A stretch of 64,000 nt of DNA from Patescibacteria group bacterium. Lineage in GTDB: Bacteria; Patescibacteriota; Doudnabacteria; UBA920; O2-02-FULL-48-8. A model generated the notes under the pieces. It did not search any database. It was given only the letters and a program-made list of their open reading frames with translations, and was not told where the DNA came from. Where the stretch lies: positions 91,892-155,891 of the forward strand of contig DASUKB010000001.1 of the NCBI GenBank assembly GCA_036278915.1, read 5' to 3'. Of the stretch, positions 5,160 through 51,170 are shown in pieces; within the stretch, counting starts at the first letter, position 1, and every line of letters starts with the position of its first letter. The position numbers and the translations under genes are program-made.

Positions 5160-5720
5160 ATGAGTCCCTATAGTCCCCAATATCATAATAGTTCTTGGTT
5201 TGGTGACTGGTGGTGGGTGATAGTCCTTGTGATTGTAGGAATTGCTGCCGCAATATATTTAATTTACACGGAGCTTGGCCGACGACATTCAACACGTTTA
5301 TTTTTGCGGAACCAAAAAGTACCACAAATAATGAAAGACCTCACTCCCTTGTCCTTTGAAATTTGGGTGAGGGGATTATTTATAAATATTGGAGCAGACG
5401 CCATACTTTCCAAACGAGAATCAAAAACCGGTTTTGATCACGGGATTGATTTAGTCGCGCATTACAAAGGTCAGAAAATTTGTATTCAATGCAAGAAATA
5501 TTTCCCGAACAGATTGGTCGATGAAACAATTTTGCGAGATTTATATGGAGCAATGGAGTATGGCAAATACGACAAAGCGGTACTTGTCACCACCAGCAGT
5601 TTTACTCGCCGCGCGCGAGAGTGGGCGGAGAAGGCTGATGATATGATTTTGATAAACGGTGAACTCCTCCAAAAGATGCGAGACAATACAGGAATCCTGA
5701 TAAACCTTTTAAATAAATAA
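5160..5720 (+). CDS. Membrane-anchored Mrr_cat (restriction-endonuclease-like) domain protein
   Basis: N-terminal TM helix (WWWVIVLVIVGIAAAIYLIY). The Mrr_cat pattern follows: LSFEIW..., ...GFDHGIDLVA..., ...ICIQCKKY..., ...VLVTTSSFTRRAREWA. Located in the AT-rich island. Confidence 0.6.
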   Translation: MSPYSPQYHNSSWFGDWWWVIVLVIVGIAAAIYLIYTELGRRHSTRLFLRNQKVPQIMKDLTPLSFEIWVRGLFINIGADAILSKRESKTGFDHGIDLVAHYKGQKICIQCKKYFPNRLVDETILRDLYGAMEYGKYDKAVLVTTSSFTRRAREWAEKADDMILINGELLQKMRDNTGILINLLNK

Positions 5721-5884
5721 CGCCCCACACTCCTATGGGGCGTTAAAATTTGACAAAATGCCCATTTGGCTATAAACTTTAGGAAAGATATAATTTTTTA
5801 GAGCGGCTTTTGCCGCTTTTTTTGTCTTAATTCCATATTGCCCTTGACGTCTTTTTTTGCCTATAGTAATATTTTATTACCTAT

Positions 5885-6211
5885 ATGCAAATAAGTAAAC
5901 TAGTCAAAAATTTAAGAGACCAAAGTGAGTTCACACTCGACGTTCTAGCAAAGAAGACCGGGTTATCTGCAGGTTTTCTATCTAGATTAGAAAAGGGCAA
6001 TTACGATAACAAGAACATACAATTGGAGACAATTATACGCTTGGCGAATGGTTTGGGACAAAAGTTAAAAGATTTTTTGGACAACTTGCAGATTATAGAC
6101 CAGAATGAATTACCTCCTTTGAATCTATACCTGAGAGAAAAGTATAAGATAAAAAAAGATTCAGATATAAAAACTATCGAAGACATAATTAATAAGTTTA
6201 CTGATGAGTAA
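5885..6211 (+). CDS. XRE-family helix-turn-helix transcriptional regulator
   Basis: FTLDVLAKKTGLSAGFLSRLEKGN is a canonical Cro/C1 HTH. Overlaps the next gene by 8 nt. Confidence 0.8.
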   Translation: MQISKLVKNLRDQSEFTLDVLAKKTGLSAGFLSRLEKGNYDNKNIQLETIIRLANGLGQKLKDFLDNLQIIDQNELPPLNLYLREKYKIKKDSDIKTIEDIINKFTDE

Positions 6212-6776
6212 TTCCATAATACAAACTATAAATTCTGATGCAGAAAAAATCGCTGCAGCAATAATAGACTCGATCAATTATGGAGAAAATCCGCCACTTG
6301 GAAAGTTAATTGGTTGGTTAGAAGATAATCTACGCTCTCAGATTGATCTTAAACATATCGATTTGGGTTCTACTCCTGTTTGCGGTCTCACGTATCATGT
6401 TTTTTCAAAAGATATGTATGTGGTCCGTGTTGACAAAACCAATCCATACACAAGACAAAAATTTACGGTTGCTCACGAACTAGGACACATAATAGGAGAC
6501 TTGCAGTTAACAGCTATAGCTGGTTATTTCGACGGCGAATTGGAAAATGTAAAAAGTGGTTTGGAAAGATTTTGCAATAGATTTGCCGCAGCTTATTTAA
6601 TGCCACCAGAAATATTTAAAAGGATTTGGTCCATGTCTGGAGATAAGAATTCAACACAAATAACGAAGATGCTTTATGTTGCTTCAAGATTTGGTGTTTC
6701 CGAAGAGGCGGCCAGGTATAGAGCTATCGAACTTGGATTACTAAATTACAGTAAACGGGACAACGACCGAAATTAG
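6204..6776 (+). CDS. ImmA/IrrE-family metallopeptidase (DUF955)
   Basis: HEXXH in FTVAHELGHIIGD. Classic XRE+ImmA/IrrE pair arrangement. Confidence 0.75.
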   Translation: MSNSIIQTINSDAEKIAAAIIDSINYGENPPLGKLIGWLEDNLRSQIDLKHIDLGSTPVCGLTYHVFSKDMYVVRVDKTNPYTRQKFTVAHELGHIIGDLQLTAIAGYFDGELENVKSGLERFCNRFAAAYLMPPEIFKRIWSMSGDKNSTQITKMLYVASRFGVSEEAARYRAIELGLLNYSKRDNDRN

Positions 6777-6800
6777 CGTTGTAGAAAGGACGAAACAAAA

Positions 6801-7091
6801 ATGATCAGAATTACTTGTATCAACAAAGATAACGGTAATCATGAAAACCCACATTTGGCCATTACCTACTTAGGTTGGATAGAAGACGGTACTAATGCGG
6901 TAGGAAAATGGGCTCGATTACAGTTATATAGATGGATCAAGGAGCAAGGCGGGATTGCGTATGTTATGGATGCTATTAAGAACCGCGTATACGTAAAACC
7001 TGCCGTTTCTGTAATGGGGAATCCTTATGTTCGGACTGAATCCGATGGCAAGGTTACAAATAATTTACTCTCGTTAATTGAGTGTAAATAG
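6801..7091 (+). CDS. DUF3892 domain protein
   Basis: 96 aa. The C-terminal ...VRTESDGKVTNNLLSLIEC matches the conserved DUF3892 signature (T..D....NNLL.LP.C). Confidence 0.55.
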   Translation: MIRITCINKDNGNHENPHLAITYLGWIEDGTNAVGKWARLQLYRWIKEQGGIAYVMDAIKNRVYVKPAVSVMGNPYVRTESDGKVTNNLLSLIECK

Positions 7092-7190
7092 CAAAGACCC
7101 GAATATAATTCGGGTCCATACTCGAATTATATCACAAAAAGCGGCACTAGTGCCGCTTTTTGCTTTTTTGAATTAAAAATGTCAAAATAA

Positions 7191-8042
7191 ATGAAAGATT
7201 TAAATCAACTAGCCTTGAAATTAAAGACCAAAATTGACGCCCAGCCCTTTATAAAGTGGGCTGGCGGTAAAAGACAGCTTTTAGATGAGCTTGAGAAGCA
7301 CAAGCCTAAATGGTTCAATAGATACTTTGAACCATTTGTTGGCGGTGGAGCTTTATATTTTCGGATTCAGCCAGGGCAAAGTTTTCTGTCGGATATAAAT
7401 CCTGAATTAGTAAATCTATATTTAATAATTCAAAGTAAAGTTGATGAATTAATTTCTGAACTCAAAAAATTAAAAGTATCGGAGAAAGAATTTTATAAAA
7501 TAAGAAATATTGACAGAAAACCGGAATATAGAGAATGGAATAACATAAAAAAAGCTGCAAGATTTATATATCTAAATAAAACTTGCTTTAATGGATTGTA
7601 CAGAATGAACTCCAAAGGCCATTTTAATGTTCCTTATGGTAACCAAAACAATCCAAAAATTCTTGACGAATATAATCTCCGGCAAGTAAATAAATTATTG
7701 CAAAATTCTGATATCAAATGTCAATCCTATTCTGGAATAGAAAAAAATGTAAAGAAAGGTGACTTTGTCTACTTTGATCCTCCTTATGCTCCATTAAACA
7801 AATCTTCTTTTACGAAGTACTTTAAAGACGATTTTGATATTAAAATGCAGGTTGATCTACGAGATTTATGCGACCGTTTAGATAAAAAGGGTGTTTATTT
7901 TATGATTTCAAATTCTCATACATCCTTGATTTTTGGATTGTATAAAAACTATGATATCAAGGTAGTTGACGCAATCAGAGCTATCAACTGCAAGGGTTCT
8001 GGTAGAGGAAAAGTGAAGGAAGTCTTAATAACGAATTACTGA
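7191..8042 (+). CDS. Dam-family (D12 class) N6-adenine DNA methyltransferase
   Basis: The N-terminal SAM motif (KWAGGKRQLL, FEPFVGGGALYF) and the catalytic DPPY (VYFDPPYAP) match the alpha-group m6A MTases of the Dam/DpnM/T4Dam family. Confidence 0.85.
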   Translation: MKDLNQLALKLKTKIDAQPFIKWAGGKRQLLDELEKHKPKWFNRYFEPFVGGGALYFRIQPGQSFLSDINPELVNLYLIIQSKVDELISELKKLKVSEKEFYKIRNIDRKPEYREWNNIKKAARFIYLNKTCFNGLYRMNSKGHFNVPYGNQNNPKILDEYNLRQVNKLLQNSDIKCQSYSGIEKNVKKGDFVYFDPPYAPLNKSSFTKYFKDDFDIKMQVDLRDLCDRLDKKGVYFMISNSHTSLIFGLYKNYDIKVVDAIRAINCKGSGRGKVKEVLITNY

Positions 8043-8043
8043 A

Positions 8044-9297
8044 ATGTCCAACCGAGAACTATGGTCAAAGGTGTTTGAAATAAAAAAATTTGATCTAAAT
8101 AAAGATATTCATTTTATTACCGCAAAGGAGATAAAGCAGATCACTGGCCAAGAGCCAAGGAATATGGCTAAGATGGATAGCACTGCAGATCTGCCGTCTA
8201 TTTTCAAAAATAACGGTTATTTTTTATTACCAATTGAAAATGGGAGATATGAAATTATACGAGGTGAGGGATATCATAAATTAGAAAAAAATAAAAAGAC
8301 AGGTGAATATGATGCAGATATTAAATTTTCTATTACGACTGCTGCCAGGGGTGCAAGTGAGATGGAATATTTAGATTACTCAATTTATACAGGAGTGCTT
8401 GAGAAAATTTTGGGTCTAGGTTCCATGTACCCATCCATCCGAGGGCGTGGCCGAAGCCGAAGTTTTAATTTTTTTGTTAACCGTCATCAAGTGGATGTTT
8501 CAGGTGTCCAACTGGAAGTAGATTCAGGTTTAGAAGCGGAGCATGCCATAGTTCTTATTGAAGCCAAAATGGAGACTCCTGAGGATTTTATTGTCCGACA
8601 ACTTTATTATCCATATAGACATTTTGGCTTGATCTCGCCTTATAAAAAAATTGTCCCAACTTTTTTTACTTATGATTTAGGCAATAAAGTTTATAAATAT
8701 TGGGTTTATGATTTTAAAAACGATGTAGATTACAATTCTATATATTTAAAATCCGTCCATGCTTTTAAAATCATAAGTACCGAACCAGTGGAACTAAGCG
8801 AGCTAAAACCTTTGGAAAACACGCAGATCGCTGATATTCCACAGGCCAATGATCTTGATAAAATTATAACTATGGTTTTTGGTGTTAATGAAAAGATTGA
8901 TGATTATAAAAAAATTGCAAAATATTTTGAGTTTAATGAGCGTCAGAGTAGCTACTATAGACAGGCTGCTGAGTCTTTAGGGTTAATCTCTTCTCATAAA
9001 GGTAAGTATTATCTTACCGATAAAGGGCAGAAATTGATTAAATTGTCTACTTCTGAGAGAAATATATTTTTTATTAAGCTCATCTCGGAATACGAGCTTG
9101 TGAAAAGTAGTTTGGATATTCTTCAGCATAAGTCGGTTTTGACCGATGGAGATTTAGTTAAGCTTGTCCGCCAAAACCATAAAATAAGTGGCAGCACTGT
9201 TATCCGACGCGCTCAATCATTGAAATCTTGGTTAAATTGGATCGCTGAGAGGACAAATACGTTTATAAAAGAAGATAACAAATTTATAGTCTCATAA
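8044..9297 (+). CDS. Putative PD-(D/E)xK restriction-endonuclease-like protein with C-terminal winged-helix domain (probable partner of the Dam-family MTase)
   Basis: Start codon 1 nt after the MTase stop (translational coupling). Candidate nuclease motif ...QLEVDSG...AIVLIEAKME (D...ExK). The C-terminal ~130 aa look wHTH-like (YYRQAAESLGLISSHKGKYYLT). No family can be assigned without a search. Confidence 0.4.
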   Translation: MSNRELWSKVFEIKKFDLNKDIHFITAKEIKQITGQEPRNMAKMDSTADLPSIFKNNGYFLLPIENGRYEIIRGEGYHKLEKNKKTGEYDADIKFSITTAARGASEMEYLDYSIYTGVLEKILGLGSMYPSIRGRGRSRSFNFFVNRHQVDVSGVQLEVDSGLEAEHAIVLIEAKMETPEDFIVRQLYYPYRHFGLISPYKKIVPTFFTYDLGNKVYKYWVYDFKNDVDYNSIYLKSVHAFKIISTEPVELSELKPLENTQIADIPQANDLDKIITMVFGVNEKIDDYKKIAKYFEFNERQSSYYRQAAESLGLISSHKGKYYLTDKGQKLIKLSTSERNIFFIKLISEYELVKSSLDILQHKSVLTDGDLVKLVRQNHKISGSTVIRRAQSLKSWLNWIAERTNTFIKEDNKFIVS

Positions 9298-9787: not shown

Positions 9788-10288
9788 ATGAACATACTAT
9801 ATGATGTAGCGGCGTGGGGGGCATTCTTTATGGCTGTAGCCGGAGCCGGGGCGGCTCTCACCGGACTTGTATTTGTAAGTATCACTTTGAATTTACAAAA
9901 AATCGTGGGGTCCGCCCGGTTGGTGGGGCGCGCAGAAGAAGCAGTGCTGCATTTGCTCTCAACTGTTATACTTTCTCTCGTCTGTCTTATGCCTGGCATA
10001 TCGGCTAAGCTTACCGGCATATTTGTACTCATACTTATAATCCCGACGTGGATTTTCTTAACTGACCTGCACCGCCGGGCTTACGCGGAGCAAAAGCAGG
10101 AAAACATGCGCTCGTTTATGTCGCGGTTCGTGCCAGCGCAGGTGGCGCTGGTGCCGATTATAATTTCTGGCATAAGCCTTATGGCGCATGGCGGCGGCGG
10201 TTTGGGCTGGCTGGCATTTGGACTTATGGCATCGGTGACAGTGGGCGTGGTGGATGCCTGGGTTTTGACTATAGAGATCATAAGATAA
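9788..10288 (+). CDS. Hypothetical polytopic membrane protein
   Basis: 166 aa with about 5 hydrophobic segments. No recognisable family. Confidence 0.4.
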   Translation: MNILYDVAAWGAFFMAVAGAGAALTGLVFVSITLNLQKIVGSARLVGRAEEAVLHLLSTVILSLVCLMPGISAKLTGIFVLILIIPTWIFLTDLHRRAYAEQKQENMRSFMSRFVPAQVALVPIIISGISLMAHGGGGLGWLAFGLMASVTVGVVDAWVLTIEIIR

Positions 10289-48659: not shown

Positions 48660-49301
48660 ATGGATCTTTTGAGCATTGTGATTTTAATTTTGATTTTGCT
48701 TTTTTCCGTGATATTCCACGAGGTGGCGCACGGCGTGGTCGCAGAACATTTGGGCGACCCAACCGCGCGGTATGCCGGAAGGCTCACGCTTAACCCTATC
48801 CCGCACATTGATTTGTTTGGGTCCATCTTGCTTCCTGCTATCTTGCTTATCTTCCATTCGCCGTTTTTGTTTGGCGCGGCCAAGCCCGTGCCAGTCAATT
48901 ACCAGAATTTGCGCAACTTCCGGAAGGACATGATACTCGTGGCGTTTGCAGGCCCGGCCACGAATTTCCTGCTTGCGATTATGGCCGCTATTGCGTACCG
49001 GCTGTTTCCCAATACATCGCCCCTGGCCGGGTCTATACTTTTGGAAGTCGTCATTCTCAATTTGGTGCTAGCCGTGTTTAACCTTATACCAATCCCGCCG
49101 CTGGACGGGTCCAAAATTTTGGCCTCGCTTCTGGGATTCGTGGACCGGGGGATTATGTACTGGATTTTGGAACTGGAACGCTACGGATTTATATTGATCA
49201 TATTGTTTTTATTTACGGGATTGTTCACGGCAATTTTGATTCCAACCGTGTCGTTCTTTGCCGGCCTCCTACTGGGCACCGGAGTAAATCTGGGATTTTA
49301 G
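48660..49301 (+). CDS. Site-2-protease-family (M50) intramembrane metalloprotease, small form
   Basis: HExxH in IFHEVAHGVVAEHLGD within a TM helix. LDGS(K) motif in the second half. Confidence 0.75.
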   Translation: MDLLSIVILILILLFSVIFHEVAHGVVAEHLGDPTARYAGRLTLNPIPHIDLFGSILLPAILLIFHSPFLFGAAKPVPVNYQNLRNFRKDMILVAFAGPATNFLLAIMAAIAYRLFPNTSPLAGSILLEVVILNLVLAVFNLIPIPPLDGSKILASLLGFVDRGIMYWILELERYGFILIILFLFTGLFTAILIPTVSFFAGLLLGTGVNLGF

Positions 49302-49360
49302 AAATAAAAAAGACCCACAAGCGGCACACACTTTCGTGTGTACACACTCATGGGACGTGA

Positions 49361-49762
49361 TTACGACCGGGTCTTCGGGAAAATTCCGGTCTCGATGCGT
49401 ACGAAGCCTTCTTCGGTCTGCTTCAGTATCAAATCGCAATGTTTGGACTTCTCCAGTCCTCCGAAGTAGGTCATAATTCCGATGGCCACCAGCTCTTCCG
49501 GTGTTGTCTTGCATCTGGTTGACAAGTCCGCCAGCATATCCGCCGCTTCATTCTTCACGTTGACCAGGATCGTGGTATCACCCGTGCTTGGGTGTAGCAG
49601 GAAGGGAAAAATTTCATCGCTATCCCGATCTTCCCAGTACAAGGGCTTGCCTACGATTTCCTGTTGCTTGCCGAGCAGGACAGCGCTCATAGCGTTCGAG
49701 ATTGTTTTTGAATCTCGGAGTTTGGCTTTCTGTTCCTGAGAAACTGCCACAACAAGTCTCAT
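49361..49762 (-). CDS. Hypothetical protein, GC-rich two-gene cassette, gene B
   Basis: The internal ATG (M19 of the ORF-track entry) carries a GGAGG SD. The longer ORF start would overlap the upstream repeat/terminator. No family recognised. Confidence 0.4.
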   Translation of the reverse strand: MRLVVAVSQEQKAKLRDSKTISNAMSAVLLGKQQEIVGKPLYWEDRDSDEIFPFLLHPSTGDTTILVNVKNEAADMLADLSTRCKTTPEELVAIGIMTYFGGLEKSKHCDLILKQTEEGFVRIETGIFPKTRS

Positions 49763-49834
49763 ATCTTCCTCCGTTAAAGAAAGACCCGCAAGCGGCACAC
49801 ACTTTCGTGTGTACACGCCTGCGGGTCGCGATCG

Positions 49835-50464
49835 TCAGATCAGGCTGCGGAATGCATCCGCTTCCTGCTTGCGCCGTTCCAGCATCAGCTGACGCTGATT
49901 CGTTGTATGCTGCAGGTTGCGCTCCGTGGCCTCGGCGTCGGCCTGGTTCTTCATCGCCCGCCTGTTGTTCTCAGCGATTACGGCACGCTTCCTGTCGCGC
50001 TTCTTCTGTTCGTCATCGGCCGCTTTGAGCGCATCGTGGACCATCGTGTAGGCCTCGACGCGGTTTTCAAACGTGCCGTTGGTCTCGGTGTGCACCGCTT
50101 CGACCGCCTTATTGAACTTCGACTTGAGGCCGGCGAGAAGGTCTTCGTCGTACTTCTCTCCTTCACGCTCTTCGAGCTGACGAGAGAAGTAGGATTTTCG
50201 CGAGATCTCGATGCCGTTGTCCGACACGACACGATCGAGAAATGCGTTGCGTATGAAAGCACCGAAGATGGCGTGGAGACCGTTGATGGCCTCGTTTGCC
50301 GCCCGAACCGCGTTCTGCTCGTCGCCCTTTTCGAGGTGGGAGGCGGTCATGTTGATGTTGGTCCTCACCGTGTCCGGGATACGGAACGATTCGATCTTCT
50401 TGACGGTTCCCAGGAGGGTTACGAGTTGTTCTTTCGCGTCTTGGATCGTGGTGGCTTTGGCCAT
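49835..50464 (-). CDS. Hypothetical helical/charged protein, GC-rich two-gene cassette, gene A
   Basis: 209 aa with an AAGGAG SD. A basic C-terminal stretch (KKRDRKRAVIAENNRRAMKNQ). No family recognised. Confidence 0.4.
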   Translation of the reverse strand: MAKATTIQDAKEQLVTLLGTVKKIESFRIPDTVRTNINMTASHLEKGDEQNAVRAANEAINGLHAIFGAFIRNAFLDRVVSDNGIEISRKSYFSRQLEEREGEKYDEDLLAGLKSKFNKAVEAVHTETNGTFENRVEAYTMVHDALKAADDEQKKRDRKRAVIAENNRRAMKNQADAEATERNLQHTTNQRQLMLERRKQEADAFRSLI

Positions 50465-50640
50465 CGCAATAACTCCTTGAAATTGTGTGAAAATCCCGCT
50501 AGGGCAGAATTGTCCCTTTTGGGAGGATTGGACTAGCTTTCTAGTCTAATTCTTCCAAAAGCGACCCAGTCTTATCCAGACAATACAGATTAGCATAAAA
50601 TATGGCATTTGTCAATAGCTTGGGTTTGATTTATACAGAG

Positions 50641-50669
50641 TTGACGCGCGATGCAAAACCTGTTATTAT
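50641..50669 (+). promoter_or_regulatory. Sigma70-like promoter of the str operon (TTGACG-17-TATTAT)
   Basis: Consensus-like hexamers with a 17-nt spacer, ~90 nt upstream of rpsL. Confidence 0.5.
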
Positions 50670-50713
50670 TTGCCAGTACAAGATATTTTAGTATTTAAGT
50701 CCGTTAGAGTTGC

Positions 50714-50740
50714 AACGGCAAGCCTTGCCGTTTTGTTTTG
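50714..50740 (+). promoter_or_regulatory. Terminator-like hairpin in the rpsL 5' leader (possible attenuator)
   Basis: AACGGCAAG/CTTGCCGTT stem, then TTTTGTTTTG, between the promoter and the rpsL ATG. Confidence 0.4.
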
Positions 50741-50756
50741 TAAGAATGTAATAATC

Positions 50757-51170
50757 ATGCCTACCATAAATCAGCTTGTCCGACACGGACGCACCAAATC
50801 AGTATATAAATCAAAGTCTCCAGCCCTGGAGCGCGTTTATAATTCGCTCAAAGGCGAGAACTACAACGTCGCCAAAGGTTCGCCGTTTAAGCGCGGCGTC
50901 TGTATAAAAGTCTCTACTATGACGCCGAAGAAGCCAAACTCGGCTATCCGCAAATTCGCCCGTGTGCGCTTGAGCAACGGCATGGAAGTCAACGCCTACA
51001 TCCCAGGGATAGGCCACAACTTGCAGGAGCACAGCGTGGTTATGATCCGCGGCGGCCGCGTGAAAGATTTGCCAGGTATGCGCTACCACATCGTAAGAGG
51101 CAAACTTGATGCCGGCGGAGTAGAAGGAAGAAAGAGATCAAGATCTAAATACGGAGCAAAGAAAAGTTAA
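50757..51170 (+). CDS. rpsL: 30S ribosomal protein S12
   Basis: [12 protein letters not shown]...[18 protein letters not shown]. The ORF-track start at 50670 is an upstream extension. Confidence 0.95.

Follow-up and report, generated by a model that had tools for sequence, protein, structure and literature searches.

Phage morons are recognised by a promoter and a terminator of their own, a deviant GC content and a hot-spot site (PMC2920897), and the monomeric F-plasmid protein TraY contains the complete fold of a ribbon-helix-helix dimer within a single chain (PMC12117103). Here we compare these and other described systems with a small insert in a 64,000-nt stretch of Patescibacteria DNA (contig DASUKB010000001.1; below, the window), in which two minus-strand genes, A and B, lie between a gene for an M50 peptidase and rpsL. 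Both genes, with their AAGGAG and GGAGG Shine-Dalgarno sequences, had been pointed out in a model-made annotation of the same DNA (the original prediction) and are present as described. Like phage morons, gene A and its flanking signals (unit A) combine an own promoter, a factor-independent terminator and a deviant GC content with a site that holds different inserts in relatives, and a related copy of A occurs in a different genomic context. Unlike morons, unit A is part of a bacterial chromosome, is flanked by a protease gene and the str operon rather than by phage or prophage genes, has no phage, plasmid or IMG/VR homolog, and also carries a conserved structured 5' leader. Genes A and B are nearly unique, and the kinds of element to which they belong are known: an autonomous accessory unit, a protein with a predicted single-chain ribbon-helix-helix fold, and intrinsic terminators present in duplicate.

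We favour, with a probability of about 0.55, the reading that the insert is accessory DNA that accumulated in the variable spacer between the M50 gene and the str promoter of a Doudnabacteria-like genome, as two independent units arranged head to tail on the minus strand. The insert measures 1.34 kb and fills the gap between the M50 gene and the str-operon promoter, with rpmB, M50 and rpsL-rpsG-fusA as neighbours; nearly all window genes are on the plus strand, A and B forming a minus-strand pair. For comparison we used 80 related loci, the nearest M50 peptidase genes (62-69% identity) being those of Candidatus Doudnabacteria metagenome-assembled genomes (MAGs). Of these loci, 24 have M50 and rpsL in synteny, separated by a spacer that ranges from ~60 nt to 3.6 kb. 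One relative (L006) has an uninterrupted junction of 187 nt, in which the M50 stop codon lies ~15 nt from the conserved str promoter; in L007-L018 the spacer holds unrelated small genes, mostly on the minus strand. A homolog of gene A or gene B was found by tblastn in 0 of the 80 loci. The original prediction had taken the pair for a foreign module, and had named an uninterrupted junction in relatives as something to look for and homologs of both genes at the same position across the lineage as evidence to the contrary; the former was found and the latter were not, as expected of an accessory module.

The str promoter and leader are kept in L006-L010 and the window, as TTGAC[AG]-17-TTAnnAT, TTGCCAGTA, and then GAGTTGCA-hairpin-TTTT just before rpsL, which starts at 50757. 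This conservation sets the limits of the insert at 49302 to ~50637, very close to the 49300-50640 of the original prediction. The gap between M50 and the str promoter is an intergenic hot spot, filled with different small genes in different lineages. A relationship is seen between two of the spacer genes, those of L013 (289 aa) and L016 (232 aa), with 30% identity over 102 aa (E 5e-10). As a separate observation, the conserved str leader (window 50641-50756 and L006-L010) resembles an attenuator or a ribosomal protein leader, and matches no Rfam family.

The two genes differ in their distribution. The A family has three members among 5.8 billion protein clusters: the window protein, identical to NCBI hypothetical protein VFX17_00805, P0002 (40% identity) and P0009 (44%). 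P0002 is encoded on a farmland-soil contig (L001) by a lone opposite-strand gene beside tRNA-Gln, between an exo/endo-phosphatase gene and dnaX, and starts at an ATG at 10115, which is not the called start. P0002 has no B homolog in its neighbourhood, and P0009 is the only gene called on its 1,072-bp contig (Logan ERR3697022). For gene B, whose product is identical to VFX17_00800, an exhaustive phmmer search of 1.84 billion representatives returned two credible homologs, P0004 and P0006, located on L002 and L003 without A nearby. Since the A and B families never co-occur outside the window, their homologs indicate that A and B are two stacked accessory units and not a conserved operon or pair. 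The self-contained foreign module originally proposed is thereby narrowed: the insert is accessory, and unit A is self-contained and atypical in composition, but there is no conserved two-gene module. We also note that two neighbouring minus-strand genes of L001 (14433-20732), separated from its A unit by ~4 kb, encode a type IV coupling protein like TrwB/VirD4 (842 aa) and a giant protein exceeding 2,315 aa; no link to A is established.

A and B could alternatively form one functional operon, of a regulator-effector or toxin-antitoxin-like kind, in which B would repress the A promoter or leader through a palindrome in that leader. The genes are adjacent on the same strand, the lack of an own promoter would make B co-transcribed with A, and the predicted fold of B is of a repressor type. 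We nevertheless consider such an operon unlikely, as the two families are never together elsewhere, a very stable terminator stands between the genes, and the palindrome is not kept in L001, where pairing is preserved and the spacing of the conserved halves is off by 5 nt, which speaks for an RNA rather than a DNA operator. PADLOC and Pfam gave no toxin-antitoxin or defence match, and this, together with the lack of conserved co-occurrence, leaves a toxin-antitoxin pair unsupported. A repressor-like protein, as first suggested, may thus be present in the form of B, but nothing links it to the A promoter.

The predicted promoter of gene A is back to back with the divergent str promoter. The TTGACA-17-TAATCT site of the original prediction is present, with a -35 element equal to the consensus, but its -10 element matches the consensus at 3 of 6 positions only, accompanied by an extended TG; a simple consensus scan did not list the site because of this weak -10. 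In L001 the A homolog is preceded by TTGACA-17-TATACT, the -35 element, the spacing and the position being as in the window. The L001 unit continues with an AT-rich leader of ~130 nt and a GGAGG ribosome-binding site, and ends in a different hairpin terminator of its own.

The composition of gene A is deviant. Its GC content is 57.6%, and with a GC content at third codon positions (GC3) of 0.76 (z +2.9) it ranks first among 50 window genes, the values at first and second positions being ordinary. Gene B, at 50.5% GC and a GC3 of 0.61, falls inside the native range, so that the GC-rich cassette of the original prediction is reduced to gene A. Among the moron features, a promoter, a terminator and a deviant composition are all found in unit A, while B has native GC and no promoter. 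The preference of gene A for C over T in codons ending in a pyrimidine (NNY) is 0.84, compared to 0.70 in rpsL, 0.67 in tuf, 0.63 in rpsG and an average of ~0.43. The A coding sequence of L001 is still more extreme, with 64% GC versus ~48% around it, an NNC fraction of 0.98 and no A-ending four-fold codons. A simple transfer of gene A from a high-GC donor is disfavoured because the conserved leader is AT-rich. Altogether, we infer from the sequence that A may be a strongly expressed and post-transcriptionally controlled gene.

If expression were so high as to explain the GC3 of gene A, both genes might be native and vertically inherited, and their absence from relatives would simply reflect the distance to the nearest sequenced genomes. 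The C preference of A does run in the same direction as in rpsL, tuf and rpsG, the promoter and leader of A are AT-rich and native-like, as is the composition of B, and the closest M50 genes are only 62-69% identical. Vertical inheritance is nonetheless decidedly improbable: the spacer holds something different in each relative and nothing at all in one, the two A-family members with DNA are in different genomic contexts, the whole family amounts to three members in 5.8 billion clusters, and the GC3 of the L001 homolog is extreme and unlike its surroundings. The deviation of gene A from the rest of its contig could also be thought to betray an assembly chimera or MAG contamination. That origin is extremely improbable, since the segment has native flanks on both sides within a contig of 385,993 bp and an independent assembly, L001, has the same architecture (AT-rich leader, GC-rich coding sequence, terminator); the promoter, the leader and gene B are moreover native-like.

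A third possible origin is phage or plasmid DNA left behind in the chromosome, either as a true phage moron or as a fragment of a plasmid. The anatomy of unit A, with its own promoter, terminator, deviant GC and hot-spot site, is moron-like by the published criteria (PMC2920897), and the predicted fold of B is frequent among regulators of plasmids and phages. Homologs of A or B were, however, absent from 50,697 phage records and 72,556 plasmids (tblastn) and from IMG/VR (protein-pattern scans), neither gene matched a PHROG, and A had no structural match in BFVD. With housekeeping genes on both flanks and no integrase adjoining the insert, we regard such a remnant as very improbable.

We compared the leaders of gene A in the window and in L001. 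They share the blocks TCGCTTTTGGAAG, CTCCCAAAAGGGA, ACAATT (two or more) and GCCCT..GGGA, the first two being collinear exact 13-mers; one shared 13-mer was obtained in 2 of 2000 shuffles. The corresponding coding sequences agree at 57% of nucleotides overall and at 48% of third positions. TCGCTTTTGGAAG and CTCCCAAAAGGGA are complementary to each other and enclose a segment that is self-complementary in both leaders and differs in sequence and length, the conserved halves being 26 nt apart in the window and 21 nt in L001. The same long hairpin is the minimum-free-energy fold of both leaders, and RNAalifold predicted 18 pairs for the two together, of which three changed on both sides and two on one side with pairing kept.

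The palindrome seen in the original prediction is present, at GACTAG (50531-50536) and CTAGTC (50541-50546), with arms of 6+6 and not 7+7 nt. It had been taken for an operator-like DNA site. By its sequence in the two leaders it is instead the apical helix of a longer RNA stem-loop (palindrome 50531-50546), whose base is identical in L001 and whose apex differs yet pairs; the variable spacing and the covarying apex argue for an RNA element, and against a DNA operator of fixed geometry. The ACAATT and GCCCT..GGGA blocks lie between the stem and the ribosome-binding site, and the 3' strand of the stem contains a conserved CUCCC that is complementary to the ribosome-binding site of gene A. Judged from these features, the stem-loop most probably acts in cis as an RNA element governing translation or the stability of the mRNA. 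It is comparable to structured cis-regulators of 5' untranslated regions (riboswitches, ribosomal protein leaders, RNA thermometers) in its place between promoter and ribosome-binding site, its invariant base and covarying apex, and its CUCCC able to pair with the ribosome-binding site; it differs from them in having no Rfam match and only two known examples. Autoregulation, with the basic helix of the A protein binding its own leader, is a matter of speculation.

Searches for further leaders were negative. A covariance model of the stem matched only the window and L001 among the window and ~0.4 Mb of related loci, neither leader came near the gathering score of an Rfam 15 family, and an exact-pattern scan of IMG/VR found none. 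Two matches to the leader pattern in Joint Genome Institute (JGI) metagenomes were rejected as chance, one in a coding region of a high-GC contig and one in a clustered regularly interspaced short palindromic repeat (CRISPR). The latter match lies in L005 (1-600), a metagenome contig with a CRISPR array of repeat GAAACTCCCAAAAGGGAGTAGAAAG unrelated to the gene A leader.

The product of gene A has 209 residues, as originally stated; an acidic, helical domain at the N-terminus is followed by a beta-hairpin and then by a basic C-terminal helix of 77 residues. Nothing significant was found for it in Pfam, PHROGs, PADLOC or NCBIfam; there was no PDB sequence match, no BFVD structural match and no toxin-like match. 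A weak match to UPF0147/PRK04330 (E ~0.02) was taken as chance because it is absent from the other two members of the family. Opposite to gene A, an antisense open reading frame (ORF) of 209 aa (49907-50536, plus strand) was rejected as a gene, with a score of 175 versus 398 for the sense frame; the matching frame is also open in L001, and the ORF is a by-product of GC3-rich coding in gene A. RNA structure within the A coding sequence was set aside as a source of its high GC, the signal of extra structure being only weak (z -2.2 and -2.35, 20 shuffles).

Each gene is followed by one of two near-identical modules that start within ~10 nt past the stop codon. The ~50-nt modules of the original prediction correspond to a direct repeat (49777-49832 and 49306-49361) that is 84% identical over 56 nt, with an exact core of 27 nt that occurred in 0 of 100 shuffles of the window. 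On the minus strand, where folding and a T-run had been predicted, they form hairpins of -46.3 and -32.2 kcal/mol (z -7.5 and -5.8), with a U-run directly 3' of the stem, UCUUUCUUU in copy 1 and UCUUUUUUAUUU in copy 2. The plus-strand folds are worse by ~12 kcal/mol, because several pairs are G.U. Two further copies occur on L002, a 1,068-bp contig in which a B homolog and a gene for a 97-aa membrane protein are bracketed by hairpins of the same family, in the order X, hairpin, promoter, B homolog, membrane-protein gene, hairpin; the promoter after the upstream hairpin reads TTGACA-17-TAAAGT. In all four copies the sense strand is more stable than the antisense strand, by 4-12 kcal/mol. All four possess an 18-bp stem interrupted by a single bulge and end in U-runs; G.U pairs are conserved and compensatory changes occur (C-G/U-A, G-C/A-U), the window hairpins being ~76-80% identical to those of the unrelated L002 contig.

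The modules resemble intrinsic terminators in having a GC-rich 18-bp stem and a U-run after the stop codon, stable only on the transcribed strand, and with their stems and U-runs they read as strand-specific intrinsic terminators. Copy 1, between two co-oriented genes, is also comparable to the intercistronic attenuating hairpins that set unequal expression in operons. They are unlike terminators in general in their mutual identity, their likeness to the L002 copies and an invariant stretch of 11 nt in the 3' arm, which structural selection alone would not predict. Because hairpins of this family also stand on either side of a B homolog in an unrelated contig, the hairpin appears to travel with gene B; the B homolog of L003 has no hairpins. 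A family-specific covariance model found two copies in 64 kb, the next matches (~20 bits) being generic terminators, and exact-pattern scans found no further copies in IMG/VR or 185,579 GTDB species genomes. Thus, the window does not have the many dispersed copies typified by repetitive extragenic palindromic (REP)-like elements.

The arrangement of hairpin, B and hairpin is also reminiscent of integron cassettes, in which similar, directly oriented imperfect palindromes bound promoterless ORFs, and attC sites share with the modules one extrahelical base in the stem. The hairpins could then be recombination sites, and the unit a small mobile cassette that inserts at a hairpin and thereby duplicates it, like attC cassettes or the hairpin-ended IS200/IS605 elements, with B as a TraY-like accessory to a recombinase or relaxase acting in trans. 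In support, near-identical hairpins in direct orientation bracket B in two unrelated contexts (A-hairpin-B-hairpin in the window, and L002), the 11-nt 3' arm is invariant though the B proteins are 39% identical, TraY is the best structural match of B, and the insert site is a hot spot. The modules lack, however, the R''/R' core sites (RYYYAAC/GTTRRRY) of attC: only CTTTAAC/GTTAAAG occurs beside copy 1, off consensus, with nothing comparable at copy 2 or in L002. The genes adjacent to the insert include no integron integrase or attI, and no transposase or relaxase. The presence of only two copies, the failure of pattern searches to find more, the B homolog without hairpins and the differing DNA-reading residues of B (see below) also speak against a cassette, and the G.U pairs and U-runs point to selection on the transcribed strand as RNA. 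Recombination sites are therefore, in our view, quite unlikely.

Gene B encodes 133 aa from its ATG, one fewer than first stated; a mechanical ORF of 151 aa begins at a GTG within the hairpin. The promoter scan found no promoter-like site between hairpin copy 1 and gene B, whose ribosome-binding site directly follows the hairpin. The predicted fold consists of two tandem beta-alpha-alpha (ribbon-helix-helix) units in one chain, as a pseudo-dimer, and its best structural match is the relaxosome protein TraY. None of the three B-family members, nor their halves, matched Pfam or NCBIfam, nothing significant was found in PHROGs or PADLOC, and the sole profile match was to the PutA ribbon-helix-helix domain (E 0.07). 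We class B on its model as a protein predicted to work like a single-chain ribbon-helix-helix protein, and it would presumably bind DNA. The likeness to TraY and to VirC2 of the Ti plasmid is at the level of fold only; B differs from them in a sequence identity of 6-10% with no Pfam or profile match, and in extra beta-strands (41-53, 109-122). Among the adjacent genes there is no relaxosome context (relaxase, oriT or type IV secretion genes).

The residues of the beta-strands that would read DNA differ between window B and P0004, and for this reason the hairpin as an operator of B is no more than a lead. The hint is post hoc: in L003, at 2459-2466, the 8-mer CAAGCGGC, the reverse complement of the invariant 8-mer GCCGCTTG of the hairpin arm, is present a single time in 8,964 bp (background 0.038 per kb), where it overlaps the -35 element of the promoter that precedes the B homolog without hairpins. 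It is possibly an operator half-site of the B family, or a coincidence.

Under the two-unit reading, unit A would be an autonomous, moron-like transcription unit, starting at a sigma-70-type promoter divergent from that of the str operon. Its leader stem-loop would control translation or mRNA stability, with CUCCC able to compete for the ribosome-binding site, and the unit would be completed by a strong ribosome-binding site, a GC3-rich gene for an orphan protein and a very stable intrinsic terminator. Unit B would be a single-chain tandem ribbon-helix-helix gene bracketed by two copies of one hairpin family. Since no promoter is detectable before B, the gene would be expressed only from A transcripts that read through copy 1 and its interrupted U-run. 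Copy 2 has the better U-run and would halt transcription before the convergent M50 gene, so protecting it. The outcome of this arrangement would be much A and little B.

Several observations weigh against this picture. The -10 element of the A promoter is weak, and the leader structure is known from two sequences only. The confident model of B came from one of five AlphaFold2 runs, with an alignment of three sequences; no Pfam ribbon-helix-helix model fits B and hhalign detected no internal sequence repeat between its halves, for which reason B is classed by fold and not as a member of a family at the sequence level. Selection for termination alone does not explain the 11 invariant nucleotides of the hairpin 3' arm (TGTGCCGCTTG, that is, GTGCCGCTTG with the preceding T), shared by the window and L002 where the B proteins are only 39% identical. 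The high GC3 of gene A recurs in two hosts beside an AT-rich conserved leader, and looks neither like simple transfer from a high-GC donor nor like ordinary expression-linked codon bias: the NNC preference is like that of rpsL and tuf, but the G-ending Lys, Glu and Gln codons are not.

Table 1. Features of the insert and its flanks (window coordinates).
Feature	Position	Strand	Remarks
M50 peptidase gene, left flank	48660-49301	+	Pfam PF02163; native; stop codon is the left insert edge; syntenic with rpsL in relatives
Hairpin module, copy 2	49303-49361	-	Stem-loop 49356-49312, U-run 49311-49303; between gene B stop and convergent M50 gene; covariance score 79 bits
Gene B	49361-49762	-	133 aa from ATG; mechanical 151-aa ORF begins at GTG within hairpin
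Shine-Dalgarno sequence of gene B	49772-49768	-	GGAGG, read from sequence; 5 nt before ATG
Hairpin module, copy 1	49774-49832	-	Stem-loop 49827-49783, interrupted U-run 49782-49774; between gene A stop and gene B ribosome-binding site; covariance score 87 bits
Gene A	49835-50464	-	209-aa ORF
Gene A 5' leader	50465-50580	-	~115 nt; from alignment with the L001 leader
Shine-Dalgarno sequence of gene A	50478-50473	-	AAGGAG, read from sequence; 8 nt before ATG
Leader stem-loop	50513-50564	-	Base helix CUUUUGG/CCAAAAG invariant; apical helix variable
Gene A promoter (predicted)	50587-50615	-	TTGACA (50615-50610), 17-nt spacer, TGn-TAATCT (50592-50587); read from sequence
str-operon promoter and leader, right flank	50641-50756	+	TTGACG-17-TATTAT; hairpin 50714-50732; native; right insert edge

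Elsewhere in the window, a low-GC island on the plus strand (5160-9297; 31-41% versus 47% GC) carries genes for an Mrr-type restriction endonuclease, a protein with an IrrE/M78 peptidase domain, a D12-class Dam methyltransferase and, in addition, a DUF6996/DUF6997/DUF7226 protein. These genes suggest an island for restriction-modification or defence that was probably acquired.

Two features of the insert are puzzling, namely the conserved stem-loop of the A leader and the sequence-invariant hairpin linked to B. In a reading that we consider quite a long shot, the hairpin would have a role beyond termination, as the place where a minimal hairpin-bounded cassette ends or attaches when it passes between Patescibacteria genomes; such a cassette would lack core sites of the integron type and a recombinase encoded in cis, and would have the TraY-like B as its DNA-binding accessory; independently, the A leader would be a new class of cis-regulatory RNA, perhaps bound by the basic C-terminal helix of A.

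Patescibacteria have tiny, streamlined genomes, and to our knowledge little is known on how they gain and control accessory genes, with almost no genetics in the phylum. The locus described here shows a defined intergenic hot spot for accessory genes in this group. It also offers testable predictions for two protein families that are close to unique, one a putative DNA binder of the single-chain ribbon-helix-helix type and the other helical, with a basic helix of 77 residues, as well as two conserved non-coding elements, a stem-loop in a 5' untranslated region and a sequence-conserved terminator hairpin that appears to travel with gene B. If the hairpin were a recombination site, or the leader a regulator, the locus would provide new tools and concepts for the phylum.

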